NCBI GenBank assembly: GCA_032718475.1
Contig: JAUCBJ010000245.1
Span: 1 to 63,022 of the forward strand
Length of the DNA stretch: 63,022 bases
Origin: Nemertoderma westbladi
Lineage: Eukaryota > Animalia > Xenacoelomorpha
Reading direction: 5' to 3'
In this document: piece by piece, positions 11,151-38,530 of the stretch
Layout: every line of letters begins with the position of its first letter
Position numbering within the stretch: position 1 is the first letter of the stretch
Notes under the pieces: model-generated
The model's database searches: none
Told to the model about the DNA's origin: nothing
The model's input: the letters and a program-made list of their open reading frames with translations, nothing else
Position numbers and translations under genes: made by a program

Positions 11151-14100
11151 AAAGGACGAAAGCGGCCAATATTGTGAACGGCTAGGTAAACGACATACTA
11201 GCCATAAACTGAGAGGTTGTCGACTATTCCGCGAATTGAACTCAGAGGAACGACGACTACAAATACGGCCATTGGACTCTTGTTGGCGGTGTACGCTACA
11301 TGGACATGTCCGTAAAGACTGCCCAAATACAGACACTTGTCCTTCCTGTGGACGCAACCATGACGGTTTGCTCCACACAGACAGTCATACGCCGCCCAAA
11401 CGCTTCACCAGGGAACACCCGGAAGCGGCAGCAAGATGCAACACAGCATATAAGGGTCGAGAGTCGAAAACAACACCGACTTTCGTGACTCACATTAGAG
11501 ATTGGTTCTCGGAACAATCAGGATCGTCGGAGGAAGAGTCGGAAGACGACGACGTTTACTTTGATACTGGAGACGAACAACCATCGATTGCGCTTCTGAC
11601 GCCTGATCAATTAAAGGGGTTTAGTATAATTCCTGTCAAGATTACTGGCACCAAAGGAAGCAAGAGGATCTACGCTATCCTGGATTCAGCCTCATCTCAT
11701 AGCTACGTGGATGAGAAAGTAGCTGATGTTGTGACGGATCTCCGACAAGGTAAGAACGTCAGTTACACCGTAAGTAGTATGCATGGACAACGTGCAATAC
11801 CAGTGACACGAGTTAAGTTGAACTTAGACACTCTTCTTCCGAAATCGCAACATAGCGAAAAGGAGAGGTCTTTGTTACCCTTTAAAGATTTAACCTTTGC
11901 GGCCACAAAGGACTTTAGTAACCTACTAGGTCCTGTCCCAGAACAATCCTTGGAGGACCGTAAGTACTTCAGACACCTTGGTGTACCTGAATGTCCTGTC
12001 AACTATAGGTCGGTAGCAATGCTGATCGGGACAGATCAATTCAACCTACATCAAGTGTGGGAAACCAGACCATCGGCAGTCGTAGCGGGAAACGCATACG
12101 CCTGTAGAACGCCGATAGGGTGGTATACTCGAGCGCCTGTGCGCACACTGGATATAAGTGACGAGGAAGACGATATACAAAGTACATGTAGTTTATTAAC
12201 TACAACTTCGACTCATTCCTTTTCACACGACCGAGACTATACTACACAAGCGTCGACAAAACACGACAACATGACAAGTACGACGTGTGTAGCTAATACG
12301 ATAAGTCACAAGGAGCAGCTAATCCACCAGGTGAGTTTAGAACTTGGGAAGAAGACGAGTCAGCCAGAGATTCCATCGACGACAGATGATAACGCCGGAA
12401 GGCTTGCGAGTCTACCTCAACCAATAACCTCAACAATGCCTGTCGATATCGATGATGACGCGTTAAGAAATCATCAAGTGGAACAAGCTGCATTGGACAA
12501 AGAATTAACGGAGAAGACTATCAGGTGGTTAGAACAAGATACAGCTGAACCTGGTAGCTACGAACCATGTATGTCGGAACAAGAGAAACAATCTTTGAAG
12601 ATCATGGAAGATACTATCCGCCAGACGAAAGACGGACATTATGAGGTAGGGATGCTATGGCGTAACCAACGTCCTAAACTCATAAATAACTATCCGCTAG
12701 CCTTAAGACGTTTACACTCAATACGACAACGTCTATTAAAGGACGAGAAAGCCCATCTGCAGTATAATACTCAGATGGAGACGTATTTAACGAAGGGATA
12801 CGCTATCAGAATGACTAACCCAGAGATTGTGACTGACCAGACATACTACTTGCCACATCACTACGTGAGACCAGACAAACCAGACAAAGTACGTGTAGTC
12901 AATGACTGCGCGGCTCTGTTTGAGGGAATGTCCCTCAATAGTGAGTTAATGGATGGACCAAACATGAATAATTATCTTATGGGGGTGATTATGCGCTTCC
13001 GTCAGCGTCAAGTAGCCTTTACTTGTGACGTCGAAGCTATGTTTCACCAAGTGCGAGCGTTTTCGGTGCCAGGGACAGCCCAAACTGTACGATGTACGCC
13101 CTAAAGCAAGCCGCTAGGGATCAGAAACATATATATGACCCAGAGATAATCAAGATCGTAGAACGCGACTTTTACGTGGACGATGGTTTACAGAGTTGTG
13201 ACACAGTAGAACGTGCTATTACAGTAGCACATCAATTACGGGACTGCTTAGCGGGCGGAGGTTTTAACCTCACCAAATTCGCCTCAAACAGTGCCGAATT
13301 GGTAGACTCATTCGGAATGACTGAGCGTGGAGGTGGTGACATTGACCTAGAGTTCGAACCACTACCGACGACCAAGGTGTTGGGGCTCTTTTGGGACCCA
13401 AACACGGACAACTTTCGAGTGAAGGTGAGACTGGACACTCAAGAAAACATTCTGACAAAGAGATCCTGCTTGTCAAAATTGAGTCGATTATTCGATCCAT
13501 TAGGATTCATCAGCCCAATAATACTGCAAGCCAGAATTTATATGCGCAGCATTTGGAAGGATGGACTGACATGGGACGAGCCGATCTCATCAGAACAAGT
13601 GGACTTATGGAAAACCTGGGAGGCAGAATTATCTTCAATAGAGGATTATTCCATACCCAGAGTGTACTTTCCATTACAAACGACATTTCCTGACAACTTG
13701 GAATTACATTGTTTCTCCGACGCCAGTGACAACGGCTTTGGTGTGGCAGCGTATTTACGCAGACAAGTAGACTCAGACGAGTTTGATGTTTCGCTCATTA
13801 CTTCTAAGGCTAAAACCATGCCTACTAAGTATATGACGACACCACGCGCTGAGCTACAAGCCGCAACCCTGTCAACCACAATCGTGAACCTTATACAGAC
13901 GGAACTACAGTCAAGTTTACAGATATTTTATTGGACTGACGCGACGTTGGTTTTATTTTACATAAACAACGACACACTTGAATTCAAGACATTCGTAGCT
14001 AACCGTCGCGCAGAAATTCTAGACCGTTCAATAAAGGAAGATTGGCGACATTGTCCCGGACCACAAAACCCAGCCGATATTGCGTCGCGAGGAATGATGC

Positions 14101-16512
14101 CTGAGGAATTCTGTAAACCGGAGAACAAAGAATTTTGGCAACACGGACCACAATTCTTGCAAAGATCAGTACAACATTGGCCGCCACTATACGACAACAA
14201 GTCTAACACTATCCCTAAAGACGCGGAAATTAAAAAACCAAAGAAAGGGAAAGCAAAGAAAAGGACGGCGGCTAAACTCAAGAAAAAACCGAAGGCGAAA
14301 TGGAAAGATATAACTTCAAAGGTCAAGAGCGGAAGACTTGCGAGCCTTTCTACACCAGACATATCGCCAGACGCGTTACTAGACGGTCAACCAGACGTTT
14401 TGCCAGACATATCACAAAATGTTCTACCAGACACTAGTAACATATTGACAAATAGTAAAGCCGCAGTTTCTCTATTGGAGCGGCCTTCTATAGACAAACA
14501 TCCAGACACGTTACCAGACGTATCGCCAGACGCGTTACTAGACGGTCAACCAGACGTTTTGCCAGACATGTCACTAGATATTTCGCCGGATGTTCCGCGA
14601 AACATTTTACCAGACATGTCACAAAATGTTCTACCAGACACTAGTAACATATTGACAAATAGTAAAGCCGCAGTTTCCCTATTGGAGCGGCCTTGTATTG
14701 ACAAACTACCAAATTTGACACACTTGAGTAACCATAAGCACAGTGAAACCTCATGTATTACAGATGTGGGTAGTACCTACGTAAATGTAAATACAGGTGT
14801 TACTTTGCGCTCAAGAGACATACCAAACTTGCAACCTATGGTGAGACCTGGGATTAATATCGGCAGAAAAATAAGTTTACCGAAACCCAGTGACCCCATA
14901 GAGTTCAAACCACCATTAACGATCGACTTACAAAGTACTGACAACCAGGGTAAGAAAACAAAGAAGGACAAATTACTTGTAGACCCGGACGGATCAACAG
15001 TCAACAAGGGAATACCTACCGGCGGACCCGTGGGCCCTTCTAGTAAATCAAAACCTTCCAAATTCTCCATTGACTTACCTGATGACGTCACAAATACTTA
15101 CGTCGACCGTATTGTAAACTTAACAGATTCTTGGACAAACGCTTGCCGAAAATTAGCGTGGATTGTACGTTTTGTACAATACGTTAAAGGCAAACGCGAC
15201 TTTACACGTCGACTTACATTGACTGAGATTGACAGGTGTGAAATTAAATTAATTCGCCATTACCAACTGCGATATTTCGCGCGCGAATTCACATCTATAA
15301 ATCAAGGTCAACCAATCAAGTCGTCACCAATATTGAGTTGGAGTCCGATAATTTATAATGGCTTAATTTGTCATAAATCTCGGCTTGAAAACATTGACTT
15401 TAACACAAACTTTAGATACCCAATAATAATACCGCAGCATCACGAATTACAACGTGCAATGATACTGGACGCACATTTACATCTGAAACACGCTGGAAGA
15501 CACCACTGTCTTTCCTACTTACGTACAAGATTTGTATTAATTAGACCCAGTAAAGCGTTAAGTTCAGTGACACGTACGTGTATTATTTGTAAAAAGGTAC
15601 ATTCTAGAATAGGTACCCAAGAAATGAGTGAACTTCCACAAGCACGACTTCAAGCATTCAGACCACCTTTTACAGAGACTGGAATTGATTGCTTTGGTCC
15701 CATACATACGAAACGTGGACGTATACTAGTAAAACGCTGGGGACTGATTTTCACATGTATGTCCAGTAGGGCAGTTCATATTGAACGTGTGATGGATCTT
15801 TCCACCAACGCGTTTATACTAGCATTGCGGCGATTTATCGCTAGACGCGGACTAGTGAAATGCTTGTACTCAGACCAAGGGACAAACTTTGTTGGTGCCC
15901 GAAATGAAATTGCTAGAGCCTTTAAGAAATTAGATCATGATCAAATCTCAAACGAACTACGTCCTTACAAGATTGTTTGGAAGTTTAATCCTCCAGATAG
16001 TCCATGGAGAGGCGGAGTCTGGGAGAGATTGATTAGATCTATAAAAACAGCCATGGCGAAAGTAATTCCAGTAAACCACATTTTGACAGACGACCAACTG
16101 ACTGACGACCAACCAACTGACTACTTTGACGCCTATTTCTTTTCCAACAGAAAGCGACAGCTACGGTAGAAAAGCGTGGAAAATCACGCAACTACTAGCT
16201 AACAAATTCTGGGAAATATGGCAAAACCATTATTTGCCCTCTATTTCTGCCAGAACAAACTGTTACAATAACACCCGCGCATTAAAGCCGGGAGATCACG
16301 TGCTGTTAGCAGAAGTGAATCTAAAAAGACGCTTCTGGATAACAGGTGTAATTTTAGCCACACATCCATCTATGGATGGAGTGACAAGAACTGTGACGGT
16401 ACGGACAATTGACGGTCGTACAGTAGACAGACCGACTCAACGTCTCGTACTTCTTGAAGAGACTCGTAACGAGTCTGGAGACTACAAATCTCCAACTAAT
16501 ATTAGTAAATAA
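11151..16512 (+). pseudogene. pol: BEL gag Zn knuckles plus pol (PR, RT, RNase H, integrase), with deletions and frameshifts
   Basis: CWRCTLHGHVRKDC, CPSCGRNH, protease ILDSAS, RT YLPHH...DVEAMFHQV and FYVDD, RNase H HCFSDAS, integrase HHCC, GIDCFGP, SDQGTNF, GGVWERL. Frameshifts near 13060 and 16120. Confidence 0.93.
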
Positions 16513-17067
16513 TTAGGAGTTTACAAATAGATTTCCACGTACCTGTACACCATAGTAAGGACAGCGGTAGAATTCCATTGTCTTTATATGTGAACATTGA
16601 GGGTAGTACCCTTATGTGTCACATAGGAGCGGGATTTGTAGGTATAAGAAATGGAATTCTACTTGGAACTCACAATATTGAGACATTTTCGAAATTTTAG
16701 ACAATCCATTTGGATTTGAAAAATTTTTAAAATTTTCTCCAGTGAATAGATTTCAGGGTACAGTCGGGTGGAACTTAAAATTAGAGAAACAAGAGAGGAA
16801 GACTTGCGAGCCTTTCTTAAAATTTTAATTTAAATTTTACACGGTCTTGTTTCAATAAGTTACGTCAATAAATAGACTTCCCTATATTTATTACTAATTC
16901 TTGACTGCTTATTTTCTGATAATAGTTTGGGATCAAAAAGTGAGTATTTTTGACTCACAGCCAGTTTAGCCCAAATTCGTTTTTATTTCGGCAAAAAATT
17001 TTAGATAAGAAGCAGCGTGTCATTAAAGAAACCCTAGATCTTAGGCTATGGGTAGGAGGTTAGAGCG

Positions 17068-18072
17068 TTGTCGAGCCAAAAGGGCAGACGAAAACTCTCA
17101 CGTCTCCTCACAACTAACTACAAACTCTGTTGTATTCCCTCTAGTAGTAATGATTATGTAACTACACCTCTAATTATGGAGAAGGAGATACATGGAGAGC
17201 CGAGATGGGGATATGATATCCAAGAGGAAGCAGCAGCGCCATTCGAAAGATTTGGAGCCAAAGAATACACTATATTTGGTATAAAAGAATTATCAGAAAG
17301 TACTGCGAAACTCGCGAGAACTAAATATGACTCGAATGTATTAAAGAGAAGGCAAAACGCATTAAATGAAAGAATCGAAAGTTTGCGCAAAACCTTCAAT
17401 GAACTTTACCCGTATGACGCTTTGTGTGATACGGGAGACATTAGCGAAGACCCCGATACTGAAATTAGTGGTTTGTATCATACCATGCAATACCTAAAGG
17501 CGCACGAACCTATGCCTGCGGTACGAGATGAATTCGATGGAATGCACCTTTACAGACGAACTCGAGGGGACGATAGAGAAACAAAGGAAGCATTTTCAGT
17601 TTATAAACTTTATTATCAATGCGGTTCTTGTATGCGCGAACAACGAAATGCGATTCCAATGCGTTTGAATAAGGAAAATCCCGAACCGATATTGGCGAGG
17701 TGTTCGAACCATCAACAACTACGCTACCAGGAAGGAGGGTATCCTTTATCAAATCCATATCATTCGTTTGCTATGACTGGACCAAAGGCGGGAGAAACTG
17801 TCGTTTACCCACCTAAGGTTGTTGAACCCGATGCATTTGAACTTACGCTGGACGAGGCGAATCAGTCAACCCGCGAAAAGAAAGAAGCTCTTAGCCTATA
17901 CAGAGCCTACAAGGCTTTCGAGAAAGGTGAGATGGAAGAATGGGGCGGAAGACTCGCGAGCCTACCTTACCATTGGACGTCACACGATCAAACTTCAGCT
18001 AAGGAGATGACACCGGAAATTTTCGAAAGTATAAACTTTGCCCAAAATGTTCAATCGTATCACATATGGTGA
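17068..18072 (+). CDS. Extra ORF downstream of the BEL integrase, unknown function
   Basis: 334-codon ORF (likely ATG ~17197) in the env position. CGSC...RCSNH is a possible metal-binding site. No hydrophobic TM segment seen. Confidence 0.6.
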   Translation: MSSQKGRRKLSRLLTTNYKLCCIPSSSNDYVTTPLIMEKEIHGEPRWGYDIQEEAAAPFERFGAKEYTIFGIKELSESTAKLARTKYDSNVLKRRQNALNERIESLRKTFNELYPYDALCDTGDISEDPDTEISGLYHTMQYLKAHEPMPAVRDEFDGMHLYRRTRGDDRETKEAFSVYKLYYQCGSCMREQRNAIPMRLNKENPEPILARCSNHQQLRYQEGGYPLSNPYHSFAMTGPKAGETVVYPPKVVEPDAFELTLDEANQSTREKKEALSLYRAYKAFEKGEMEEWGGRLASLPYHWTSHDQTSAKEMTPEIFESINFAQNVQSYHIW

Positions 18073-18688
18073 ATTTGACCGTTTTCGAACAGAAAAGCGA
18101 AATAAAGGAGCTTGGTTAACCGTCGCATGGGCGTACCGAGCCGCGTTCTATCATAGGCGTATACGAGCGAGCGTATTCGAGGAAGAGGAGATCCTAGAGG
18201 CGACCGACATACCAGCCACTCCGGTTGCGCCGTCTCCACGTCACCCTCGGGAGGACGGACAGGGTAGGATCATAAGGGTCCAGAAAGTGAGCCAACAATT
18301 AAAGAAGTCTATTAATATAGAAGAACGCAAGGGAGTTGAGCCGACCATTCGAATTACTCGGGATACGGTATCGCTTCCTAGAGAACCAACAGGAGGATCG
18401 GGACATACACCAGCTGATCAAAAGGGGGCGCAAGCTACTCTTGGGTCTGCGTCGTCCGCTTCCCGCGCGTTCCCAGACGTTTTACCAACTGTAGTGACAA
18501 CTGATCGGTCACGAGGAATCGGTCGAGGTTTCGGGATACCAAATAGACGAATTTGTGAGGAAATGGTCGCACCGTCTCCCAACGTCCAAACGAAACCAGT
18601 GACTCGCCCCACGAGTCCCATATCGCGAGCAAAGTCACCTGTGCGCAGTTTTCGAGGACACGGCAGGGCTCGATCCACTAAGCGATAA
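18038..18688 (+). CDS. Second extra ORF, or frameshifted continuation, basic and Pro/Arg-rich
   Basis: 216 codons, overlapping the end of the previous ORF in the +1 frame. Confidence 0.5.
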   Translation: MPKMFNRITYGEFDRFRTEKRNKGAWLTVAWAYRAAFYHRRIRASVFEEEEILEATDIPATPVAPSPRHPREDGQGRIIRVQKVSQQLKKSINIEERKGVEPTIRITRDTVSLPREPTGGSGHTPADQKGAQATLGSASSASRAFPDVLPTVVTTDRSRGIGRGFGIPNRRICEEMVAPSPNVQTKPVTRPTSPISRAKSPVRSFRGHGRARSTKR

Positions 18689-19475
18689 AAGGGAGGGCAA
18701 GGGTGGACGGAAGACTCGTGAGCCTTTCTTGTGAATTTGTGATTTATTTGAATTATATGTTTTATATTTAGTAAGTTTTGTATTCTGGAAGATTCATATT
18801 TAGTAAGATTTATATTTAGAAGAAAGTTATATTTTGCAAGATTTATATTTTATATTTGTGATTATTCCAAACTTATGCAATTTATATTGTTCCGAATACT
18901 ATGCAATTTATATCTTATAAGCAGTATTTGTATTTACAGTGAAATAGAAAGTAAGAGTAGATGGAAGACTCGTGGGCCTTTCTTATAGTTTCATTTGTAA
19001 AGTGTTATATTTTGTATTTAGAAAGTTTTATAGTTAGAAAGTTTTGTACTTAGAAAGACTCATATTTGTAATTATTCCGAACTTATGCAATCTACATTTA
19101 GGCACGAAAGTATTTGTAATTATTTGAATTTATGCAATATTTGAGATGCAAGAGTAGATGGAAGACTCGCGAGCCTTTCTTATGATTTTCATTTATTTGT
19201 ATTTGTAATTGTTTGAATTTATGCAATATTGAGATGCAATAGATTTATATTGGTGAATTTAATTTAGATGTATATTGTACTTACTTAGTAAAGCCTTAAA
19301 TATGTAAAGTTTGAATTTGTAATTATTTTGTATCGAATCATTATGTAGAAAGGAAGTATTGCTTGAAATTTAATTTGTAAATATGTAAGTACACCCTAAG
19401 CATTCTATAATTTGATTGATTATTGGTGAAAACCGTATATTTTATGCACGATAATATCCTGTTTTCATGGAGCGG

Positions 19476-21347
19476 TATAGAATTATATTCTCTAAATGCC
19501 GTGGATTTTCAAAATTTTATTTTATTCGAATTAACTTTGTTAAAAGATTACATTAAGTCCTCATTTGTATTTGCTATATCTATTTGTACGATGATTAGTC
19601 AAGTGGTTCAGTAGCTCAGTCGGTAGAGCGTTGGAAATTATATGTAGTGTATATTGAGTTCGAATCCTAGTAGGTGCGAATTATTTTTTGTGCAGAATTT
19701 CAACTCATTTAAATTGACCGCTACAAATTAATTGCATTTGCTCGAAGTAAGGTTAACCAATGAGACTGTAGTTATTAGATTGTAACCAATGTCGTACGAG
19801 TTATATATTTGCTGGACCAATAGCTATCTTTAAAAACCTGTTAGAACTCATAGAACAATCGAGAATTTTCTCGATTGATTGCAGCACAAATTTGGTATAA
19901 AAGGTGCGATTTCGTTCATTAGTTCACTACACACTTCAATCACTATTACTTCTGTTTATTGTATAATAGTTATTGTTTGATTTTGTAATAAAAGTTAGAA
20001 ATACTTGTCACATCTGCCCTTTTCTATCTGTTTTACTATGCTTCACCACGGTGAACCCAACTAAGGGACAGGATGGCTGGCTAAACATCGGGCCACAGCA
20101 ATGAACGGGAACATCTAAGGAATGTAGGCAGGAGACAACCCGCAATATCACTCTTAGTTATTCGCCCATCGCCTGAAAGGTTAGACAGCGTTCGATGCCT
20201 TGCTACCTAAGTATAAGACCAAAGATCGAAGGTAGAGGTAGTGACACGCTGTACGCCTAAAATTACATCTAGAGACTGTACTGTTTTAATTCAGGAAAAA
20301 ACCGCAGTAGACCTTCATATTCCTACGGGGGGAGAGCAGGCAGAGATACTAGTACGCAGATAGGACGTAGGCACACCGGTACAAGGCATACACATTGGTA
20401 GGGTGCAGCAAACTGTACGCCTAACTCTTGCTAAGTACAGGTGCGTCTGTGACTATTTGTAGTACAACGGTGTCCATTGCATTAGAACTTGTAGGCTAGG
20501 AGGGTTGCTGTGTTTCACCTGAATTAGGATTGTACCGTTCAGGCGGTAGAGCAGTTTACGACTAGGCGCAAATAAATTGAGGCTATTTAGGGATACTAAC
20601 ATCTACCGTGTCCCCGCCGACATCCTGATAGGAAGTTACCAAGCCCACCTAGGTAACCAAAATTCTAGATAGGACACCAGGCTAGCTATTAGTAACCGTA
20701 CGCCTACTGTAGTAAACTAACACATTTCTTCTTAGTATTAGGGACCTGGTAAATTAAAATTGCCGAATTCTGGGCGTAGTATTAACCTTATGCCTGAATT
20801 TGAGTCCTGGAAATACGCAAGAGGGGAAGGAGCCTTATCATTCGTGAGTATTGGACCTACAAGTTACAAAATTAGAATATTCGTAAAATGCACACCGTAC
20901 CCAGTAATTATATATATGAAGGAGCAAAACTGATCTTGACGGTTCAGAATTAACACACGCGCGTTAGAAATTATTTACACCTCAAAATATATAAAATTAA
21001 CTTTTGTCTGTACTGCGCTTTGCCCGCTAGTTAGACATCTCCAGATCTCTGCACCTAGCTAGCGTCCTTTTCGCCCAACCATATAAATCACACCGCGGCA
21101 AAGTATACGAGCCCCTTAGTCCGTCAGTGAGTCAGCCTGATTTTAGGATTCGCTGCGCGGGATTTTGTTTTATCGAAGTTTGTCTGTTCGTAGACTGTTT
21201 TCTGCCTCACCGGTTATAAGGGACCGATACTGCAATATATATTCGCTTACTTGGAGTTTACTGTTTTGGTGAGAAGGTCGGATTTATGATTTGATTCACA
21301 AACTTTACAGTAAGATATTGCAGGTATTGTTACTGTCTCTTCGAATA
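19476..21347 (+). repeat. BEL 3' LTR (1872 bp)
   Basis: Copy of 4140-6004 with a 7-bp insertion and scattered substitutions. Preceded by short purine-rich GGAGCGG. Confidence 0.93.
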
Positions 21348-21352
21348 GAAGT

Positions 21353-23596
21353 TTATCATTGAAACGATACCTGTATGTACTTTGCGGACATAATTCCAAC
21401 AATTACGATATACATTGTATATTACAAAGCGGATTTAGAGATAAGAAATATACAGATTGGGATATAAAGGTTATACCGAGAAATACAGAACGATATATTT
21501 CACTGAGTGCATTTATCCCAATTAAAAACACTTCTAAGAAAATTGAGTTACGTTTCTTAGACACATATCAATTTTTAAGCTTTTCTTTAAGTAATTTAGT
21601 TGAGTGTTCAACAAAGGATGTAGCGAGTCATGATATAAGCTCAATTTTACCTATTACTCTACAAGAAATGAAATATTTTTATCCAAACTTGAATAACTCA
21701 ACAATTAAATGGAAAGGAGTATTTCCATACGAGTACTTGACAGATATAAATAAATTTAATGATACTGGTTTGCCGTCTATAAATAATTTTTTTAGTAACT
21801 TAAGTCAAAAAACATGCACAATTGAAGATTATAGGTTTGCGGGAATATCATGGGTAGAATTCGACTGTGTGAATCTCAAAGATTATCTTTTAGCCTATTT
21901 AAAACTCGATGTTTGTTTGCTTGCTGATATATTTGAGAATTTTAGGAATGTTTGTAAACAAAATTACGATTTAGAAGCGGTTTTTTACTGTAGTATCGCG
22001 TCATTTACCTATGATTGCGCGCTAAAATATAATAAATGTAAAATAGAATTAATAAAGGATTATCAGACATATAGAGATTTTGAAAAATCAATTAGGGGTG
22101 GTGTTTCATTTTGTCGAAAGCATTATATAGAATCAAATATACCAGGTACAAGTACATATGATTCTACTAAGGAAGAATGCCATATTTTTAATATTGATTT
22201 CAACTCTTTATATTCTGGGAATTTAAGTAAAAAACTACCCACCTCACAATTCAAAGAAGTAAGTATTAAACATTTAGAGAATGCAATTCCAGAAAAACTA
22301 ATCGAGTACTTGGTAGATTTAGACATTGATGGATCTACTGGATATTTTTTAATATGTGATTTAAATTATCCCAAGGCTATTCACGATCAAACATTACAAT
22401 TACCGTTAGCCCCTGAGCATTTAAGTATAAATGAATCAATGCTTTCGCCTTATATGATGGAACAATTTAATAACTTGTCAATACAAAGAGGTACCTCCCG
22501 TAAATATAGAATGTCTATACCAAAACTCATGCTGACGCAATTTGATAAAGAGTTTTATCATTTACATTTGAAACTGTTAAAATTTTATATAAAACATGGA
22601 TTAATTGTTACTAAACTACATAAATTATATTCTTTTCAACAAGAATTTGTATTTAAAAATTACATCGATTTTAATATTAATCAAAGGCGACTGGCAAAAA
22701 GTTATATTGAAACAGCTGTCGCGAAATTGCTCAATAATTCGTTGTTTGGCAAATCAATAGAAAAGATAAGAGATCGATGTAACTTTCGTATCGCAAATAG
22801 CAACGATAAATGCGATCAATTGGTAAATCGTATTAATCATGAACAATTTATAATATACAATAATACACTATCGGGACATTTATTAGTGAAAGACTCTGTA
22901 ACTCTCGATAAGCCTATATTTATTGGTAGCACTGTGTTGGACTTGGCTAAATTGGATATGTATGAGCTGTATTACAATAAATTGCTACCTATTGAGAAAG
23001 AATTAAACTGCCGTATTGAAATTGCTGCATCAGACACTGACTCGTTGATAGGTTGTTATTATAATACATCGCAGAATAATTTTTTAAAAGCATTAATTAA
23101 AAATAATATTTTAGATACATCCAATTACCCTAAGGATCACCCACTCTACAGCGATAAAAATAAATCCAGACTCTATTACTGTAAAGACGAACTAGCCTCG
23201 CGTGAAATTAAACAAGCAGTATTTTTAAGACCAAAATTATATTCAATTTTGGAATGGAATAATAAAAATATTCGTAGAGCAAAAGGTATTACAAGAGCTG
23301 TTGTGGAAACGAATATTACACATGAAGAATATTTAAAAGCATATAACTCAAATGAAGAAATAAAAAAAATCATACACAGATTTCAATCTAAATTACATCG
23401 TATTTATACCTTAAAGCAAAATAAATTTGCACTCAGTAGCTTTGATGATAAACTTTATTGGGTTAATAAAAATCAATCACTTCCTTGGGGGCACTATAAA
23501 ACAAACCTCAAAAAACCTATAAAAATATCAAATATACCAATTTATGAAGAACCAAAAGACGATGGTGTTGATGATGAATTATCAAATAGTAAATAA
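21353..23596 (+). CDS. pPolB: pPolB C-terminal part (exonuclease II/III and polymerase motifs)
   Basis: HNSNNYD, FLDTYQF, KGVFPYEY, YLKLDV, motif A IDFNSLY, motif B KLLNNSLFGK, motif C SDTDS, AKGI. Joins 2319-4139 in frame to give ~1354 aa. Confidence 0.96.
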   Translation, partial: LSLKRYLYVLCGHNSNNYDIHCILQSGFRDKKYTDWDIKVIPRNTERYISLSAFIPIKNTSKKIELRFLDTYQFLSFSLSNLVECSTKDVASHDISSILPITLQEMKYFYPNLNNSTIKWKGVFPYEYLTDINKFNDTGLPSINNFFSNLSQKTCTIEDYRFAGISWVEFDCVNLKDYLLAYLKLDVCLLADIFENFRNVCKQNYDLEAVFYCSIASFTYDCALKYNKCKIELIKDYQTYRDFEKSIRGGVSFCRKHYIESNIPGTSTYDSTKEECHIFNIDFNSLYSGNLSKKLPTSQFKEVSIKHLENAIPEKLIEYLVDLDIDGSTGYFLICDLNYPKAIHDQTLQLPLAPEHLSINESMLSPYMMEQFNNLSIQRGTSRKYRMSIPKLMLTQFDKEFYHLHLKLLKFYIKHGLIVTKLHKLYSFQQEFVFKNYIDFNINQRRLAKSYIETAVAKLLNNSLFGKSIEKIRDRCNFRIANSNDKCDQLVNRINHEQFIIYNNTLSGHLLVKDSVTLDKPIFIGSTVLDLAKLDMYELYYNKLLPIEKELNCRIEIAASDTDSLIGCYYNTSQNNFLKALIKNNILDTSNYPKDHPLYSDKNKSRLYYCKDELASREIKQAVFLRPKLYSILEWNNKNIRRAKGITRAVVETNITHEEYLKAYNSNEEIKKIIHRFQSKLHRIYTLKQNKFALSSFDDKLYWVNKNQSLPWGHYKTNLKKPIKISNIPIYEEPKDDGVDDELSNSK

Positions 23597-24125
23597 AAAT
23601 ATAAGTTGTAAGCAGATTATTTATGGACTTAATTTAAAAGAATTAAAAAATCAATTGAATGGTAAAATTGTACTCAAACCTAATCAGTTTATATATAAGG
23701 TATTTGGTGCAACCATATTAATGTTTACAAATGGACGAATAACAATTCTCGGTAGAAAATATAATTTTAATAAAGTGAAAAAACATATATTAGAAAAAAC
23801 AAACATTAATTTGATTTTTAAATCAATCAATTTGTGTACTTATATTTTTAGTATCGATACTGTAATTTATAGGTTACTTATAAACAATATCGGGTTTTAT
23901 GTTATATTTGATAATGTTAAACTAGAAATTTCATACGATCCTGAAATATTCAATAACTGTAAAGTCAGAATAAATAATATTGTTGTTGTTTGCTGTTTCT
24001 ACACTGGTAAATGTACATTAATGTGTTCCCCGTTTAAATTTCATATATATTATCCTATATTCAACAAACTGGTTAATAATTTATTATTGTTTGGTGTGGG
24101 GGTTTTTGATGTAAAATATAATTAG
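23544..24125 (+). CDS. TATA-binding protein (TBP)-like protein
   Basis: Two-repeat TBP pattern. Repeat 1: QIVNKNIS...LNLKEL...ATILMFTNGRITILG. Repeat 2: SINLCTY...SYDPEIF...VCCFYTGKCTL. Confidence 0.72.
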   Translation: MKNQKTMVLMMNYQIVNKNISCKQIIYGLNLKELKNQLNGKIVLKPNQFIYKVFGATILMFTNGRITILGRKYNFNKVKKHILEKTNINLIFKSINLCTYIFSIDTVIYRLLINNIGFYVIFDNVKLEISYDPEIFNNCKVRINNIVVVCCFYTGKCTLMCSPFKFHIYYPIFNKLVNNLLLFGVGVFDVKYN

Positions 24126-24820
24126 TGTGAGTGAAATTTATTGTTGTTGCTGTTTGGTGGTGGAGATTTTTACTGTAAAATATATATATTAAATTGGAGG
24201 GAGAAGAAATTTATGAATATTTTTTTTTTAAATCAACAACTAGTTTGATGGGAAATTAACTAACTAACTTCAGTAGAGCGATTGCTTGTAACACTCAAGT
24301 AGGCATAGTATACTCAGCAGCCGTAGCTAGCTAGCTAGCTTACTAAGCATTGTTGCTCACGAGTGAGCTACAATAGCGCATCTGTGACTTATGAGTGTGC
24401 GAGTGTACAGCAGGCAACGCTAAGCTCAGTGAGAAAAAGATTAGGGGTATGTGCTGGTATTCATAGTCAAAGACGATGCCATCCTATCTGTTACTAGTCT
24501 GTATACCGGCACATATTATTATTATTAAAACATCCGCTATGCATCTCCCTACATTCAGAATAGAACAATGAACAGAGCATATATCGCTAATCCACATGGG
24601 AAAGGTTTATGTTCTACATTTTGTTAACTATGTGAATTTTGTAATGTAAACATCTGCGACCCACTACAAAAATATATATAAACTCAATTTTCAAACAATG
24701 AACTATAATTTTGTTAACCAAAATAAGAACAAAAATAAAAATACCGGTATACTGTATCCACCCTGTCTGTTACCCTTAGACTATATATATAAACCTAAAC
24801 TAACCTGAGACAGCAAGAAG

Positions 24821-25228
24821 ATGACTTTCGCCTATATCAACAACCGGTCGTTGAAAAGCAACATAAAGTTTGATTTTGAGAGTGAGGATACTTTTGTATC
24901 ATCATCAAACGTATCTGATTTGGAAATCAGATACATTAATAAAAAATTTGAAATCGGATTTACCAATATCATCAATCACGAACATGGTGTAACAAAGTTA
25001 GAAACAACAAAAAACTTTACTTTGAACATAAGAATAAATCCAGGAACGGAAGAAGAAGAAGAAGTTACCGGTAATCAAAACGAATTAATACCAGCAACTC
25101 TACAAGAGAATTGGGAAACAGAGACCACTGCAACTATACCAGAACCGGTAGAGACTATTTGGAAAGAAATTAAACTAGCAATGCCTACCTGTAATAATAA
25201 TAGGCCTAATCATCAACATTTTTCATAG
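24821..25228 (+). CDS. Hypothetical protein, 135 aa
   Basis: ATG-initiated ORF with a TATATATAAA element ~35 bp upstream. No recognisable motif. Confidence 0.4.
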   Translation: MTFAYINNRSLKSNIKFDFESEDTFVSSSNVSDLEIRYINKKFEIGFTNIINHEHGVTKLETTKNFTLNIRINPGTEEEEEVTGNQNELIPATLQENWETETTATIPEPVETIWKEIKLAMPTCNNNRPNHQHFS

Positions 25229-26268
25229 ATGGATACTGGTATCTAACTAGTAGGCTACACCTGTACACCCGTACACTCATACTCATTTCTACATTTATAA
25301 AGTAGACCTAAATGTTACCAGTCTGTGTATGTCTATATTATATGTAATTTAATTTAAAAAGCGGACGCATAAATAAATAAAATAAACTAACTAACTATGT
25401 TTTATATAGGATCGTTAACATAGAGTGAATGTTAGTAACTAGAGAATGTGGCGGATTTTATATAGTTATACCTCAAACCACACCTATTGTATCAGCTAGA
25501 GTAACAGAGTGCGAGGGGATTTTATAGGGCCTATAGCGCTACTGACGCCTAACCATACCTATTGTATCGATGTGGTAGGGGGCTTTCAGTTGAGGAGTAC
25601 CGTAGTCATTAGGCCTATATGCCTAATGAATGAATGTGTGCCTATCCGTGTGTTCTAAAGGTTAACTGTAAAGCATATTGGGTCAACATTCGAAAAGGGG
25701 GCCGTATAAAGTTAACTATAGCTGTATAGGCTTACCTATGCAACAGTAGTAGCCCGCAGTAATGTAGATTAGACCAATTAAAGTTGTAAACAGAAAATTG
25801 GAAGCATTCAAGTGTAATAGCCTAATCCTTAAATCAAAGAAACCAGCATGCCCTTGCGCTATCCAAGTATACAGTTACAAGAGTGCTACGGTGCCGGTAC
25901 CAGTAGGCCTATTGTTAGGTGGGCCTCCTCTAATGCTGCATTCACGAACCCCCATGTCGACTTAATTTAATTTTATTATTAGTAAGTACAGTAATGCTAA
26001 AACACTGTGGTTGCTGTCGGGGCCATTCTGCCGTTCTACAGTTTAGCGTTTTTGGTATACCTATGTAGTAAAATCAGCTAGCTACTGGTAGTTAAACTCT
26101 GATACAACAGCCGGCTACCGGTAGGTGCGGTGTGTTTGTGAGTGTAAACTTAAGCTCTACACCTTCAGTCAAACTGAGATATTAAAAAATAGATTTTAAT
26201 GTTTTTATTATTTTTATTGACATTAAAACAATTATATTATCCTATCACATTACATGCTTAGAGTAAAC

Positions 26269-26883
26269 CTACAGTACATCTTCCACCACAGTTATTTCTT
26301 TCTGTTTATCATCATCATCATCAGTCGCAGTTAAACGCATTAAACGCTTTCTCACGAAAAATCGTTTCAATTCAAACCCACCGACCTGTTTTGCTGAGCA
26401 ATACCGCAGACAGTTATCCTTTGTGTTTAAGTGGAATGCACATTTATTTTCCAGTGCAATAAATTGATCGTGGAAGTGACAGGGGGTTAAATAATTGTAA
26501 TATTGCTGATTATATATCCACAATTTCTCCATCGAATTTGGTGCGAGAACATCAAGTTGGGAAACTAATATTGCCCGCTTCATCAACCCAAATACATGTA
26601 TATTTTTTTTATATTTTAAATGTCTCTTCATGTATTTTTTAAAGTCATCTTGCGAAATGTCACCATAATCCCAAGGTAAATGGGAAGTCATGTCTCGTAA
26701 ATTGTTTACGTGAGCTACATCTAAAGCTGATAACTTAATATTAGGTGGGCCTTTAATTAAAAACGTCTTTACATTAGTTTTGGTGTAATTAGAATCAAAT
26801 ATAGCAAATTCTTTAAATACTACCGGATACTCTTTATTGTCTATCTTATAATATTGAAAATCAACAAAAATAATATTATCCAT
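26269..26883 (-). CDS. DEDD/DnaQ-like exonuclease-fold protein of Polinton type
   Basis: IFVDFQ...FKEFAI, HLPWDYGD, C-terminal CxxH...C. The first acidic pair reads DxQ. Confidence 0.6.
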   Translation of the reverse strand: MDNIIFVDFQYYKIDNKEYPVVFKEFAIFDSNYTKTNVKTFLIKGPPNIKLSALDVAHVNNLRDMTSHLPWDYGDISQDDFKKYMKRHLKYKKNIHVFGLMKRAILVSQLDVLAPNSMEKLWIYNQQYYNYLTPCHFHDQFIALENKCAFHLNTKDNCLRYCSAKQVGGFELKRFFVRKRLMRLTATDDDDDKQKEITVVEDVL

Positions 26884-26914
26884 TTTATCTGATAAACAAA
26901 AGCTAAATGATTAA

Positions 26915-27370
26915 TTACAACGCTTGTTGGTTTATTTTATAATAATTAACAAGCCATTTATATAATATTATTTCATTTATTTCCACATTATTTGTAAACG
27001 CTCTCATTGGATAGTTTGTGTGAATTCGATTTACCAAGTAATAAAGACAGTATAATCCACATGTGGTCCTCCTTGGGTCTTGAAATTGTTTGCGAGTAGT
27101 ACGCCATCTTGCGGAATTTTTCTCAAGCCATTTTTCGATACATCTGTTTGGATATTTTGATCCGAATGAATCAAATAATTCAGCCTCATTATCTCGTATA
27201 TATATTGCGATCCAATGAATCCCGGGTAGATGCTCTTTATCGGTATTTACTATTAACCCATAATCTCTCCGCTTATTATTATTATCTAATTTAGGTAATT
27301 TATTAGCTGGAAACGCTCCCAAATAGTGACCACCCACTGGAAACATATCAAGGTCCTCTGTAGATAACAT
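26915..27370 (-). CDS. Adenain-like cysteine protease
   Basis: NTD...GIHW, FDSFG, Q...TCGLYC catalytic motifs. Confidence 0.93.
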   Translation of the reverse strand: MLSTEDLDMFPVGGHYLGAFPANKLPKLDNNNKRRDYGLIVNTDKEHLPGIHWIAIYIRDNEAELFDSFGSKYPNRCIEKWLEKNSARWRTTRKQFQDPRRTTCGLYCLYYLVNRIHTNYPMRAFTNNVEINEIILYKWLVNYYKINQQAL

Positions 27371-27372
27371 AC

Positions 27373-28606
27373 TTAATCGATATGTATTTCTTTCCTGCTA
27401 TTTAAACTTAATGATTGATCATAAATATTAAAAACGATTACATTTATGGTTTCAACCAATGGTTCGGCAAATCTTAATTTTAATTGGCCGTTAGTATATA
27501 TCGACGGCTGCGGATCTCTAACATAGCTGTCGGCGGTTAGGTCCCAGGATAGGAGGGGGCAATTACCTAAGTAGGTTTCATGGTCTATATTATTACCCCC
27601 ATAACCGTTAATATATGTATTAATGTTCTTCATTAATTGAGTATACTCAAAAATATATGTTCCATCTGTAAAATTAGGTTCGTATATTACACCACCTACT
27701 GGAAGACCGTCTATAATCAGTTCCGCGCGTCTAAGGTTAAAATGTTCAAATTTCAAGGGATTGCTAATTAATTCTCCCGAATAAGCGTTATTTGTTATGA
27801 AGCCGATAATAACTAATTTGGGTTTTTTACCATCAAATATGTTTGTTTGGGTGTAATTTGTGGTTTGAGCGGGAATAGTAAATGTAGTAACCTCCTTTTT
27901 TTGGAATTGATATTCAATATCGTAACTCTCTAAACCTTTTAGGTGACTGCTTTCTATTACCGGATTAACCTCCATTCTAGGGATTAGGATCTTTACTTCA
28001 TCTAATTCTAGCCGAAGATTTGTCACCGCGTTTGCGTTTGGAGTGATTTTAAAAATGCATTCTTAAATCATACCCGGGTTGTATTATTTTAGTTTCAGTA
28101 TCAAAATCAATCGTCAATCCACTTACAAATTGCATTTGTTTACTAAAGGCATCGCCAATAGGATGCGCACCGGGATCAATTTCATTTCCGTGTTTAGATA
28201 AAGGCTGATGAAAGCCACCCGCACCCAGTAGCCCATTTTTATCCTCGTAAGTTGTAAATAATAAATTGGATAAGTACGACTTGTAGAAATAATGGTTATT
28301 GCTATTTTCAACCTGCTTCTCATTAAGGTCTATTTTAATATCACTCCACATAGTCCCAGAAGGGTAATTCAACATATATATATGAGAGTTTTCAAGTCGT
28401 CTATCCCACCGTACAGTACATTTTGTAATTAATAACGCATCTTGCAGTTTCGTATAGAATTCATTGGATCTCGGTACAAGGAATGTGACTTCCCTAGACT
28501 CACTTCTGAGATTAGATACGGGGTAAATTGTTTCATAATGCTTTGCTTTAAATTCAGTCTGTATTGGCTGTATAGAAAATAAATCTAATTCCTTAATAAT
28601 TGACAT
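27373..28606 (-). pseudogene. Double jelly-roll major capsid protein, one frameshift near 28050
   Basis: N-terminal ELDLFSIQPIQT...YPVS and C-terminal PKLVIIGF...NAYSG...NPLKFEHFNL...WDLTAD...LRFAEPL. An extra T in a T5 run joins the two ORFs. Confidence 0.88.
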
Positions 28607-28608
28607 TA

Positions 28609-29175
28609 TTAAAAAATACTTTTTTCGCAGTGTTTCAGTTTGCCTTTTTTTATTTTTCTATTTTTACTACGACGATGATGTATGTTCATAGACATTGGTC
28701 TAGCAGGTCGCTTTAAATCTCTATAAACTTTTTCTACAACTGACCTTGTTGACGGTTTCATTTTATTTAATGCTTTATTAATAACCGTATTAGCCTGCTG
28801 ATGTAAGACCCGCTTACCTTTTGGTATTACGTGTTGTCTCATAAATTTGGTGGTAAATGGTTAAGCTTTTTGTAAAACTTTTTTAGCTAATGGCTTACCA
28901 AATTTTTTCAATGTCGATAAAGCGTCTGTAAATATACCTTCTCCGTGTTGATTTGTTTGCGACATACCTCTACGATAACGTTGAAAACGACGTTGTTTTA
29001 AGTTTGGACCAAATGCACCAATTTGTTGACCGTTAGGGTCAATATATGAACCACCTCGAAAAACAGGAACTTGCGTCGAGCCTCTCGTACTTCTACCACC
29101 TTTAAAAACAGCAAGATTAGAGTCTGCACCACCATATTGAGGTTTACTGTATCTTTGAAATAAATCAGAATCCAT
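28609..29175 (-). pseudogene. Basic core / membrane-lytic precursor-like protein with in-frame stop at 28861-28863
   Basis: The two ORFs are in the same frame. QYGG, FKGG and FRGG are adenain-like sites, followed by amphipathic GEGIFTDALSTLKKFGKPLAKKVL and a basic tail. Confidence 0.65.
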
Positions 29176-29176
29176 T

Positions 29177-30028
29177 TTAATTTATTCGTTTAAAGTGTAA
29201 TGTAATAGATGTTGTCCCGTATTCAAAATTCAAATCTTTTCCTTCTTTGTCTGTTATTTCAATATGAATGTATGTTATCTTATATGATTTTTTTACAGGG
29301 ATATAATGAATTGTATCCTTGACAAATTCTTTATTTATTACGCTACCATATTTCACGTCATCAGGTATCGCAACACGACGAAGTAAAGCTAAAAAAAGTC
29401 ATTAATATATTGATTTTCAATTATATTAGTAGTCACATACATGTTCGACTTAGGTTCTGGAATAGAATTGGGTGGTTGAGGGCATAAAAATACCATCTGG
29501 TAAGCTTTTTCTCCATTTCCGATAACCTTTATTAAATAACCCTTTATATTATTTTTCGTCTTCAAAATAATTTTAAAATTTGGATTTAAATTCGCGCCAA
29601 GATTATTTTCAGTAATTCCAAAATAATAGGCTAATTGTTGACCTATAAATAACTCTCGCACAGTTTTCCCTAAAATAAATTGCAACCTATTTTGCTGAGT
29701 ATTTTCAACTATTTGTAATTTATCTTTCAACGCCCCCGTGTTAAAATAATTTATAATATCATTGATACTGTAGAACAAACCGGATGGAAGTGTATCCTCA
29801 AAATTTTTTTCCCTTTTTTAATAAAATAACATTCTCTACATTGTTATACATGGACGGCAACGTAGCTAAGTAAAATATACTTTTTATACCTACCACCCAG
29901 TTTTCGTTTGGGTTTATAGGTAAGGCGCCATGGAAATTGATCCGATAACTACTAGCAGAATTACGTGGAAAATCAATTGGACAGGAGTTACTCGGTAGTC
30001 TTACGTAGAATTCATCCATCACTGCCAC
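29177..30028 (-). pseudogene. Penton (minor capsid) paralog 2, two frameshifts
   Basis: FYVRLPSNS...FPRN...WVVGI, MYVTTNIIE, LLRRV...HYIPV...IEITDKEG...ITLHFK. Confidence 0.8.
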
Positions 30029-30884
30029 CCCGTATTAACTTAAGTGTTATAACAGTGCGACCTCCGCTAAAATTAATTAATTCGCCTTGTCCGTCACGTA
30101 AAGTAATTAAGATTGTTTTTAGTTTTTTATTCAACAATGGGTAATAGCAAATGCTCTCGTATTCGTGATTAATATATTTTCGATTTAATTGCGTTAAAGG
30201 GCAGGTTCTTAAGAGCGGAGTTAAAGCGTCACCAACAAATGAGCTCTTAATAATATCAGTATATATGAAAATTGTATCTTTATTACGTGTTATATTCGTG
30301 GGAGCTGGAAAATCTAAAATGCCAATTTCCGAAATTTTTGGTCCGCTATAATTTAAAATTAATATCGGCTGTTCTATATTGCTTAATTCATCTACTGTAG
30401 TGGTACTGTATATATCCCAATTCGGAATACCTGGATGATTCCGATCCAATAACGGTTTTAAGCCTAGAATTTGTATTAAATCACCACGTAGACTTAATTG
30501 TATTTTTTTCAACTTTTTAGGAAATTTAAATTTAATTCTAGAATTATTTGTATTAAAAATGAATTCGAAATCTCTATATTTCGCTTCAGAATTAAACAGT
30601 TTATTTATATCATCAATGATCACTTGAATAGAGCTATGCATACCAGGAAATAAACTATATAATTTGGCATCTTTTGCATCTACCCCGATTGACAGCGAGA
30701 TTTGAGTTTGCAGTGTAATATTGCTGTATGTTGCTTGGTATTGAAGCTCGGCAAGCCCAATTTTAGCGTTTGGACCAATATATAATTCTTCGGCTAAATC
30801 AACAGTAAACTCACTAGGATTATTATTGGGGTAAGTGTTTAATGAGCTATCTGAAAGTAGAGTGATATATGTATCTGTGGCCAT
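30012..30884 (-). CDS. Penton (minor capsid) paralog 1
   Basis: YITLLSDSS...YPNN...F...IGLAEL, IFIYTDII...VGD...PLLR...YYPL...LRDGQG...ITLKL. Confidence 0.88.
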   Translation of the reverse strand: MATDTYITLLSDSSLNTYPNNNPSEFTVDLAEELYIGPNAKIGLAELQYQATYSNITLQTQISLSIGVDAKDAKLYSLFPGMHSSIQVIIDDINKLFNSEAKYRDFEFIFNTNNSRIKFKFPKKLKKIQLSLRGDLIQILGLKPLLDRNHPGIPNWDIYSTTTVDELSNIEQPILILNYSGPKISEIGILDFPAPTNITRNKDTIFIYTDIIKSSFVGDALTPLLRTCPLTQLNRKYINHEYESICYYPLLNKKLKTILITLRDGQGELINFSGGRTVITLKLIRGGSDG

Positions 30885-31138
30885 TATTATTATTATTTAA
30901 GCTCTCTCTCTCTCTCTCTCTACTTGACTCCATTGTACATACAGTACAGTATAATGTTAAATTATAGACATCTGTGACCACGTTCATTGTCGCTTCTACA
31001 ATATATGTGAGGAATCAATATTTTACTGGCTTTATTTAAAGCGAATGAACTATAGTGTAGTAATATCATTCGAGTTAATATTGATTAATTACGATCATAT
31101 GCGACCAAAATGAATTAATATACAGTATAAACCTAAAC

Positions 31139-32219
31139 TTATTGAATATGCTGTACCCACGACTGTTTCTTGGATCCGATGAATCGTACTAAATATTCTT
31201 TCTTCCCATTGCGTACACGTTCTTTAAGTTTGCTAATATTTTTGTCAATTGGTAGATAAATATTACTATTCGGGTGGACCTTTTGGAGTTCGTGAGAATA
31301 AAATGAGCCATTTATTATAGCTCCAGTGCTGTCCTTAATATCGAACATTACCGCTGGTACTCTATCCACGATGAATAATAAATAATTCACGTGTCCATTG
31401 TTCTCAATAGCCTTTAGCAAAAGCTGTACGAGCGATAGATAATCGTACTGTATCTCCAACTTAAAATTTTATTTTCTTGTGATTAATCTGTCTATATTTC
31501 CCATATAATCTATTCATTAATTCAGTTTCATTAAATTTATTAACTTCAATGGGTGTCATTTTTATTGTCCTATGATATGACCTATTATAAGCATAAATGA
31601 GCTTCGGTAAAATTTTTATCCAAACATTATTTCCCCGTTGCGTGAAAATTTTGAACATCTTTGTTTTTAATGTTCTATTGAATCTCTCGACAATAGCCGC
31701 CTTATTCACAGAATACATTACGTAATACTGTATACCTAACGTATCTAAATATTTTCTTACAGATTTATTTAGAAACTCAGACCCTTGATCAGTCGCGATT
31801 CTGTTTGGTTTTCCTTTCTGGAATATTTTTTGCAATATACTAATAATTTCAATACCCTTTTTTGTTTTCATACCATAGGCAAAAGCAAGCCTGCTAAAGG
31901 CATCAATACATGTTAATATATAGTTATAATTATTATTTTGCGATTTATATTGCTGCATATCCACCAGATCTATCATATATATATCTTTTAAGCCTCCCGT
32001 AAATATTTTAGATGTTGGATAATGATGTCTACGTGGAGCGTGAAGGGTGTATGTCTTTTGCCCGCTCAACCATTTCTGGGCTTGTGCTGGTTTGATATTT
32101 GCAGCTTTTGCTAATTTTGCAACACTTGCAAAACCCGCGGGGGATGATGGATCTAAATAAATTCTTAACAGTTTTTTGTCTAAGCTTCGGCTTAAAATCG
32201 GTTTCATCTTGCGTGGCAT
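31139..32219 (-). pseudogene. Retroviral-like (rve) integrase with C-terminal chromodomain-like region, frameshifted near 31460
   Basis: IDLVDM, CIDAFSR, TDQGSEF, VERFNRTLK, YNRSYHRTIKMTP; then GSFYSHELQ and KEYLVRFIG...SWV. Confidence 0.93.
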
Positions 32220-32440
32220 CTTTTCAACAACCGCAAGTAATATGTATATTCAAATCTCTTATAAAGGGCATCACCGTAAGAACAACTGAAATTTTTTAAT
32301 TATTTTCTTTGAAGTTGATGTTTTAAAGGGTTTTCTTTTTGTAGTATTTACAAGATATACTTGTGGTTTTAAATCAGTAGCTAACGGTTTACTCGATACT
32401 AAATATAATTTTCTAAATGTTACTGCTGTTTTAACCATTA

Positions 32441-33313: not shown

Positions 33314-33350
33314 TGTTGCAACATTATTGAAAATTGTTACAAAATATTAA

Positions 33351-34559: not shown

Positions 34560-34583
34560 TGACCCCCCCAGACTCGGAAAGAG

Positions 34584-38455: not shown

Positions 38456-38530
38456 GGTGAAGGCGTTGGAGCGGGGCGCGAATAACGGGAGGGCTGTTGG
38501 TTGCAGTTCGACTCAACAAATCGTGCTGAG

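Follow-up and report, generated by a model that had tools for sequence, protein, structure and literature searches.

A divergent TATA-binding protein homologue of a Polinton-type element in Nemertoderma westbladi and its possible role in promoter selection

Few DNA readers are as invariant as the cellular TATA-binding protein (TBP). Divergent TBP-like factors, reportedly including poxviral VITF-3, are also found in Nucleocytoviricota and mirusviruses, most of which have an RNA polymerase of their own and, in many cases, a TFIIB. ORF24 of KSHV, the Kaposi's sarcoma-associated herpesvirus, has been described as having a polar face and four essential Phe residues and as lacking the acidic residues for TFIIB (10.1101/2025.08.25.672222), as binding RNA polymerase II (Pol II) through its N-terminal domain (PMC7498053), and as requiring five more viral factors. 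Sporadic TBP genes are reported for mirusvirus-like elements, which are not Polintons (PMC10675990). The locus considered here lies in a contig of the xenacoelomorph Nemertoderma westbladi (JAUCBJ010000245.1, assembly GCA_032718475.1), whose 63,022 nucleotides (nt) are referred to as the window. Its first 40,428 nt form a Polinton/adintovirus-type element, in which an open reading frame (ORF) behind the DNA polymerase gene (pPolB) encodes a member of the TBP superfamily, P0001, that is neither a canonical TBP nor a herpesvirus vTBP. With a probability of about 0.6, its residues and the upstream regions of related elements point to P0001 as the element's promoter-selecting factor, which would use host TFIIB and Pol II for the capsid, packaging and integrase genes.

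A Polinton TBP gene is not wholly unreported, as the legend of Fig. 5 in Starrett et al. 2021 (PMC8502044) places a TBP label on a Polinton-related element, in a section on non-animal datasets. The available text of that article contains no analysis of TBP residues, spread or promoters, and one supplement contains neither 'TBP' nor 'TATA'. The literature searched, with subscription papers largely outside its scope, yielded no study devoted to Polinton TBPs or to the promoters of these, PMC12220804 contained nothing pertinent, and the 'Adintoc' gene sets may include the family. Polintons have no RNA polymerase; the manner in which they turn on their capsid and packaging genes is still an open matter, with consequences for the question of whether they are real viruses.

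The TBP homologue, its predicted fold and its spread

The TBP ORF is intact and encodes 193 amino acids. As an earlier note on this DNA, made from the sequence alone, had stated, it runs across the pPolB stop (23596), with an overlap of 53 nt when counted from the first ATG. Further in-frame ATGs lie at 23562, 23571 and 23574, all within pPolB, and translation likely starts at one of Met7 to Met11, because the related proteins begin 3-8 residues before an invariant Asn. The same note had recognised motifs of both TBP repeats. The motifs that it named are present (LNLKEL, residues 29-34; FTNGRITILG, 61-70; SYDPEIF, 130-136; FYTGK, 152-156) and Pfam PF00352 matches in two stretches with 25.5 bits (cut-off 22.9; E 1.2e-5), but the Asn position of the second repeat is occupied by Thr99.

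When P0001 alone was the query, phmmer found no relative in the PDB, a set of 5.8 billion proteins yielded 130 candidates with none reaching E 0.01, 1.84 billion representatives yielded none at E 0.001, and neither IMG/VR patterns nor PHROGs gave a match. Relatives were therefore sought through pPolB neighbourhoods. A profile of 16 Polinton TBPs, with no cellular TBP inside, matches yeast TBP at E 4.8e-30, and with P0001 as query the TBPs of nine relatives outrank two eukaryote-type TBPs.

P0001 is predicted to fold as a two-repeat TBP saddle, as the earlier assignment had anticipated. Prediction from the single sequence failed (pLDDT 33), and a model with 26 homologues reached a pLDDT of 77.3 and a pTM of 0.66, with the strand (S) and helix (H) order S-H-S-S-S-S-H occurring twice. 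No archaeal or eukaryote-type reference TBP had been added to the alignment behind this model, and two of its rows, P0132 and P0134, fell on the cellular side when grouped later. In a Foldseek search of the PDB, all entries listed down to E 7e-6 were TBPs (best E 1.9e-8), the next standing at 7e-3. VIA-align gave a Z of 13.6, with a root-mean-square deviation of 3.3 A over 169 residues, compared with 7.3 for the best non-TBP entry. The TBP core spans residues 8-188.

Variant sites were taken from contigs of four public runs that cover the ORF; they may represent copies or alleles, one run may be the source of the window, and contig depth says nothing on copy number. Thirteen of the 18 sites are synonymous, compared with 19-29% expected (P 1e-6 to 2e-4), and the ratio of nonsynonymous to synonymous rates is about 0.09-0.15. 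This synonymous excess indicates that the gene is under purifying selection. Four of the five other sites cluster in one haplotype, in strand S2'. The sole listed indel is of 3 nt and in frame, and no frameshift is listed.

Among 80 pPolB-similar loci, the best 80 of 150 confirmed, TBP-like ORFs were found with a small TBP profile and then with the Polinton profile. Such an ORF is present in 16 loci, including 11 of the 14 that hold at least 5 kb after pPolB. All 16 pass the Pfam TBP cut-off and 13 lie downstream of pPolB on the same strand, so that both the presence in related Polintons and the pPolB-TBP synteny that the earlier note had proposed to survey were found. In one locus (L100), the layout is that of the window, with TBP overlapping the end of pPolB and a protease-capsid block facing it. 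The suggested phylogeny against cellular TBPs places the Polinton proteins on a separate branch; in a tree of 42 rows, 16 Polinton rows are on one side of a branch and 14 archaeal and two eukaryote-type rows on the other (support 98/97). The position of P0001 within this tree is unsure because of its very long branch and odd composition. A quickly built pPolB tree of 26 rows places the window together with every TBP-bearing locus (SH-aLRT 99) and three long TBP-less loci apart from them; its subgroups agree with those of the TBP tree. TBP appears to be inherited as a trait of a single pPolB clade.

Nine viral contigs (L004, L009, L010, L011, L015, L019, L021, L023 and L026) also encode a divergent TBP, to which a long, repeated region is fused C-terminally. 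Accessory genes of the relatives include a ubiquitin-conjugating enzyme (L072:13480-13974), a KilA-N protein (L038:11783-12640) and a C2H2 zinc-finger protein (L036:6198-6626).

DNA face, upstream words and possible role

Residues were compared over an alignment of 27 rows (A5), using the yeast numbering of chain 1rm1_A; the placement of P0132 and P0134, two rows on the side of the cellular TBPs, is less certain in this alignment. The comparison includes further positions that we take to be DNA contacts of yeast TBP. Four Phe, two Asn, one Pro and an acidic pair are described in 10.1101/2025.08.25.672222, which writes the pair as E184/E188 where the chain reads E186/E188. P0001 keeps N69 (as N17), F116 (F61), F190 (F136), F207 (F152) and E188 (E134), and has Asp132 for E186. 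The earlier note had proposed a check of the DNA-intercalating Phe residues; three of the four are kept, but the first, yeast F99, is Pro46, and all 27 rows have Pro here. Phe49 was considered as the first intercalating Phe and ruled out, as its place is on strand S3 and it is the invariant Pro that lines up with F99. Yeast N159 becomes Thr99, and V71, V122, P191, L205 and V213 become Asn, Thr, Asn, Cys and Thr.

Judged by these residues, P0001 departs from canonical TBP in the four Phe, the two Asn and the hydrophobic face, and retains the acidic TFIIB stirrup, with Glu at position 188 in 26 of the 27 rows. In the model, the first stirrup loop has four residues and the second six. The half that would meet TFIIB thus appears kept, and the half that would read the 3' side of the box appears remodelled. 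Cys161 was considered as decay of a single copy, which was ruled out; its codon has no listed variant in the runs that cover it (X1, X3 and X5), and for this reason the residue looks like a family trait.

Words upstream of genes were sought de novo in each locus, in the 150 nt before every ORF and with family-wise control; per-gene counts refer to 200 nt before the start and skip four genes with doubtful starts. In the relatives, two TBP subtypes correspond to two words, ATAAAC with Arg122 (L036, L038, L063, L072 and L078) and TTAAGC with Gln122 (L071, L073, L075 and L100). An ATAAAC-type word is the best in the long Arg122-type loci, with family-wise P <=0.03 in four of five (L036, L038, L072 and L078) and first rank without significance in L063. 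For TTAAGC the family-wise P is 0.000, 0.050 and 0.055 (L071, L073 and L075, respectively). In the ATAAAC group, which includes L098, the word stands before 18 of 19 ATPase, integrase, major capsid and minor capsid genes, 3/5 pPolB genes and 1/7 TBP genes; in the TTAAGC group it stands before 14 of 19 such genes, core genes included, and 0/8 TBP genes. There is no cross-over between the subtypes among those 38 genes, and the words mostly lie 17-121 nt ahead of the starts, on the sense strand. Among the long TBP-less loci, a standard ATATATA occurs in L028, and no word was found in L092 or L105.

The TBP-bearing locus L056 has neither word, and TACGC-like words before some of its genes are not significant. 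In Gln122-type relatives, one or two related genes with a domain of about 120 residues, PC4/Whirly-like by eye, lie directly upstream of TBP (Table 1), and where there are two, the second overlaps the TBP start in another frame. The small genes upstream of TBP in the relatives gave no Pfam or PDB match.

For the element in the window a third word would be expected, because the recognition residues of P0001 form a third combination. Four tests with matrices built on the words of the relatives returned P values of 0.02-0.13; the background of the de novo and matrix tests included about 400 nt of insertion, which was removed for the TATAAGA and TATAWAW counts. Of the 11 minus-block genes, three have TATAAGA within the 200 nt before them (P 0.002, nominal and from one of 12 tests) and six have TAAGA (P 0.006, among the same 12), and one or the other precedes only 1-2 of the five core genes. 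(T/A)TAAGA is thus a weak candidate for the word of this element. Standard TATAWAW precedes 1/11 minus-block genes, compared with 32-40% expected; in the window it is found before TBP, pPolB (one box) and two ORFs without assigned function. Two TATAAAA boxes form a candidate host-type promoter of the TBP gene; the chance of two within 80 nt is about 0.017, a post hoc and uncorrected value. The distribution of TATAWAW weakly fits a TBP gene read by the host and particle genes read by the Polinton TBP.

We infer DNA binding, use of the words as TBP sites, recruitment of TFIIB and Pol II, and early-to-late timing. The TBP gene would be transcribed first, by host machinery from a standard TATA box. 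Its product would bind a variant box before the capsid, packaging and integrase genes, and the kept acidic stirrup would dock host TFIIB and thereby bring Pol II. With the TBP gene read first, an early-to-late switch may result. The earlier note had proposed a TBP that redirects host Pol II to late viral promoters. The relatives lend this indirect support, since the non-standard words ahead of their capsid, ATPase and integrase genes track the subtype of TBP, but no word is established for the present element and the term 'late' does not apply cleanly.

A number of observations weigh against P0001 as a promoter-selecting factor. In this element no de novo word passes, whether contiguous, gapped or by strand bias (best family-wise P 0.13 to 0.78), ATAAAC and TTAAGC stand before 0/5 core genes, and TATAAGA before only 1/5. 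P0001 is the most diverged member of its family, with a branch of 5.6, identities of at most 25% and an odd composition; it has a Cys in the last strand where 25 of the 26 other rows have Gly, together with an insert of 6-7 residues, and it has lost one of the four Phe, though all four are required in ORF24. As subtype and word amount to two lineages, the relatives offer about one independent contrast, and several loci are near-copies. Nine of the 16 TBP loci, several of them short, have no near-significant word (L063, L065, L067, L077, L080, L082, L083, L100 and L056), while L098 has the word and no TBP within its 7.5 kb. The ATAAAC word is not strictly late, because it also precedes pPolB in three of five relatives, and TTAAGC precedes 0/5 protease genes. 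In addition, a standard TATA within 120 nt before TBP is found in only 3/16 relatives.

One alternative is a protein with no private box, which would read plain A/T-rich or TATA-like DNA and take the place of host TBP or add to it, for example in TBP-scarce germ-line cells. The lack of a specific word in an element of 67% A+T agrees with such a role, as do the kept N69, three Phe and stirrup. However, it is unlikely given the scarcity of TATAWAW before the minus-block genes, the polar residues at five hydrophobic or Pro positions of the face, and the distinct words of the relatives. The loss of the first Phe and a first stirrup shorter by two residues would alter bending and the TFIIA-side surface, and a word also precedes pPolB in relatives, all of which could reflect a DNA-bending or repressing protein that silences or organises genes at the words, or has a part in replication or packaging at the termini, and recruits no polymerase. 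Such a protein seems quite unlikely, as the best-kept surface is the acidic second stirrup, known for TFIIB binding, and the words mostly lie at short distances ahead of the starts, on the sense strand.

TBP serves all three nuclear polymerases, and the partner-binding stirrup of P0001 is better kept than its DNA face. A decoy or host modulator might therefore soak up TFIIB, Brf, Mot1 or NC2, or redirect Pol III, with the words read by another factor; the small genes just upstream of TBP in Gln122-type relatives count in favour of this role. It ranks below the two preceding ones, since the residues of the face change from subtype to subtype as the word does, which is expected of a word reader, and the genes behind the words are protein-coding. 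That P0001 is a captured host gene, now relic or passenger, would agree with its very long branch and with the broken genes of this copy, but is very improbable. The synonymous excess, the lack of any listed frameshift and the retention of TBP across the whole pPolB clade with matching trees speak against it, and the variant data and the pPolB tree largely refute it.

If P0001 does select promoters, a wider proposal can be made, tentatively and at somewhat less than even odds. In this animal Polinton clade, a bare TBP core would dock host TFIIB while its face has been re-coded several times (Arg122/Asn205, Gln122/Thr205 and Thr/Cys), each version reading its own word (ATAAAC, TTAAGC and a third), which would make it the smallest known private transcription switch. 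With a constrained TBP subfamily and words that track its recognition residues, a single small protein and short DNA probes would suffice to test the question of Polinton gene expression. If true, the promoter-selecting role would mean that Polintons have independently solved a problem for which herpesviruses use a six-protein complex, and natural re-coded TBPs would show how the specificity of the saddle can change. Natural orthogonal TBP-promoter pairs, and evidence for a timed viral expression programme, would follow if the face has indeed been re-coded.

The host element

Without three nested insertions the element measures 18,365 bp, with 33% GC. Its terminal inverted repeats (TIRs; 1-94 and about 40334-40428) are 97% alike. 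Membership among Polintons and adintoviruses is indicated by the TIRs, pPolB, an rve integrase, a packaging ATPase, an adenain-type protease and capsid genes, the last recognised through the relatives' frames and gene order. The major capsid gene is presumably that at 27373..28606, given its place in the order and the layout that we take to be typical of Polintons. This copy has broken versions of pPolB, the integrase gene, the major capsid gene and one gene for a minor capsid protein. The nested retrotransposons and the relatives are in keeping with an animal host. Among 17 element proteins scanned, no TFIIB or polymerase family was found, and no TFIIB was found in the 50 of 138 small ORFs of relatives that were scanned.

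Table 1. Features of the Polinton-type element in the window, and genes upstream of TBP in related loci
Feature	Positions	Strand	Basis or remark
Polinton/adintovirus-type element	1..40428		Starts AGTG, ends CACT; TIR-bounded
ORF1, 354 aa, no assigned function	1058..2122	+	Residues about 140-200 PC4-like by eye only
pPolB, N-terminal part	2319..4139	+	Truncated by insertion; 49 matches in frames of pPolB-related loci
LTR-retrotransposon-like insertion, 17.2 kb	4140..21348	+	1.87-kb direct repeats, 98.8% identical; inside pPolB
pPolB, C-terminal catalytic part	21349..23596	+	521 homologues, best 46% identity, many with PF03175
Two TATAAAA boxes (23495, 23518)	23495..23524	+	In pPolB tail; 67 and 44 nt before Met7
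TBP homologue, divergent (P0001), 193 aa	23544..24125	+	PF00352, predicted model, fold searches, alignments
135-aa ORF, no assigned function	24821..25228	+	TATATAT at -39
204-aa ORF, no assigned function	26269..26883	-	By-eye likeness to family adjoining TBP in relatives
Adenain-type protease	26915..27370	-	PF00770 above cut-off
Major capsid protein (presumed), split over two reading frames in this copy	27373..28606	-	Both pieces match the same frames (420-440 aa) in relatives
Two small basic ORFs (77, 104 aa), likely core proteins	28609..29175	-	Protease-type G-G motifs
Two minor-capsid-like genes, second fragmented	29180..30884	-	Frame analysis, matches in relatives' frames
rve integrase, early stop, tail in other frame	31142..32219	-	PF00665; TATAAGA at -44
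Small core-type gene, interrupted by 430-490 bp insertion with inverted ends	32444..33313	-	
Packaging ATPase	33351..34034	-	P-loop matches; 12 matches in relatives, best E 8e-46
Gypsy-type LTR retrotransposon insertion	34342..38763	-	LTRs of 218 nt, identical; target duplication CACT
RING-like ORF (LTR in place of its end) and 147-aa ORF	38764..39768	-	
Genes upstream of TBP in relatives	L071:2105-3235, L073:7095-8158, L075:3272-4351, L077:1376-2558, L082:2793-3350, L083:1539-2120, L056:8810-9565		
LTR, long terminal repeat; aa, amino acids.

The earlier note had described a plus-strand block of PC4-like, pPolB and TBP-like genes that faces a minus-strand virion block. The facing blocks are present, but pPolB is interrupted by the 17.2-kb insertion and the PC4-like label of ORF1 gained no support. 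ORF1 did not match PC4/Sub1 (PF02229) in Pfam, either as a whole (E up to 1) or when cut into pieces (E up to 10), nor was a PC4 match found in the PDB or PHROGs, and the Atlas gave low scores only, none of them PC4; as no fold prediction was included, a remote PC4 fold may still be present. It has no homologue in the fetched pPolB-related loci and does not match the small genes upstream of TBP in relatives (HHalign probability 0.4%). Nothing connects ORF1 to TBP. By eye, ORF1 and the ORF at 39325-39768 both show repeated strand-strand-strand-strand-helix patterns, with no database match.

A family of ORFs of 150-185 aa frequently adjoins TBP in the relatives (L071:3467-4009, L073:8389-8940, L075:4582-5130, L077:2813-3361, L038:11226-11687, L072:4147-4608 and L078:3617-4135), and has an acidic motif that we take to be exonuclease-like. 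The window ORF at 26269-26883 gave no match to a profile of this family at E 0.01. The pol of the 17.2-kb insertion is presumably BEL/Pao-like, judging by its motifs. The repeats of this insertion (4140-6005 and 19476-21348) are without TG..CA ends, and a tRNA-like stretch at about 4270-4345 was not called by ARAGORN. The insertion at 32691-33181 is non-coding, has poly-C/poly-G inverted ends and is missing from some contigs of runs X1 and X5. Further along the window, at 53400-62900, lies a 9-kb array of 38-nt repeats with a strong A skew.

Comparison with cellular and viral TBPs

With cellular TBP, P0001 shares the predicted two-repeat saddle, N69, F116, F190, F207 and the acidic Y-D-P-E-I-F stirrup. 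It differs in an identity of only about 19%, in having Pro, Thr and Asn at F99, N159 and P191, and in its polar face and shorter first stirrup; it also has no N-terminal extension and stands on a separate branch of the tree. The TBP-like factors of Nucleocytoviricota and mirusviruses resemble it as divergent viral versions of the TBP fold, and the best BFVD matches include the Heterosigma akashiwo virus TBP and EsV-1-53 (E 2e-8 to 1e-6). Their identity to P0001 is 11-18%, with no close relationship shown.

The likeness to herpesviral TBP mimics drawn in the earlier note extends to function only. Both are TBP-fold proteins with a polar face in systems that have no polymerase of their own, and both are associated with a variant box before structural genes, here in the relatives only. 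BcRF1 of Epstein-Barr virus and UL87 of human cytomegalovirus are weak fold matches to the P0001 model. The late box TATTWAA stands before 0/11 minus-block genes, and, as regards the herpesviral six-factor complex, no herpesvirus family was found among the 17 element proteins scanned, several of the element's ORFs being without assignment. Unlike the herpesvirus vTBPs, P0001 is a bare core with neither the N-terminal Pol II domain nor a C-terminal extension. It keeps the TFIIB loop and has lost one Phe, and is in this respect the mirror image of ORF24.

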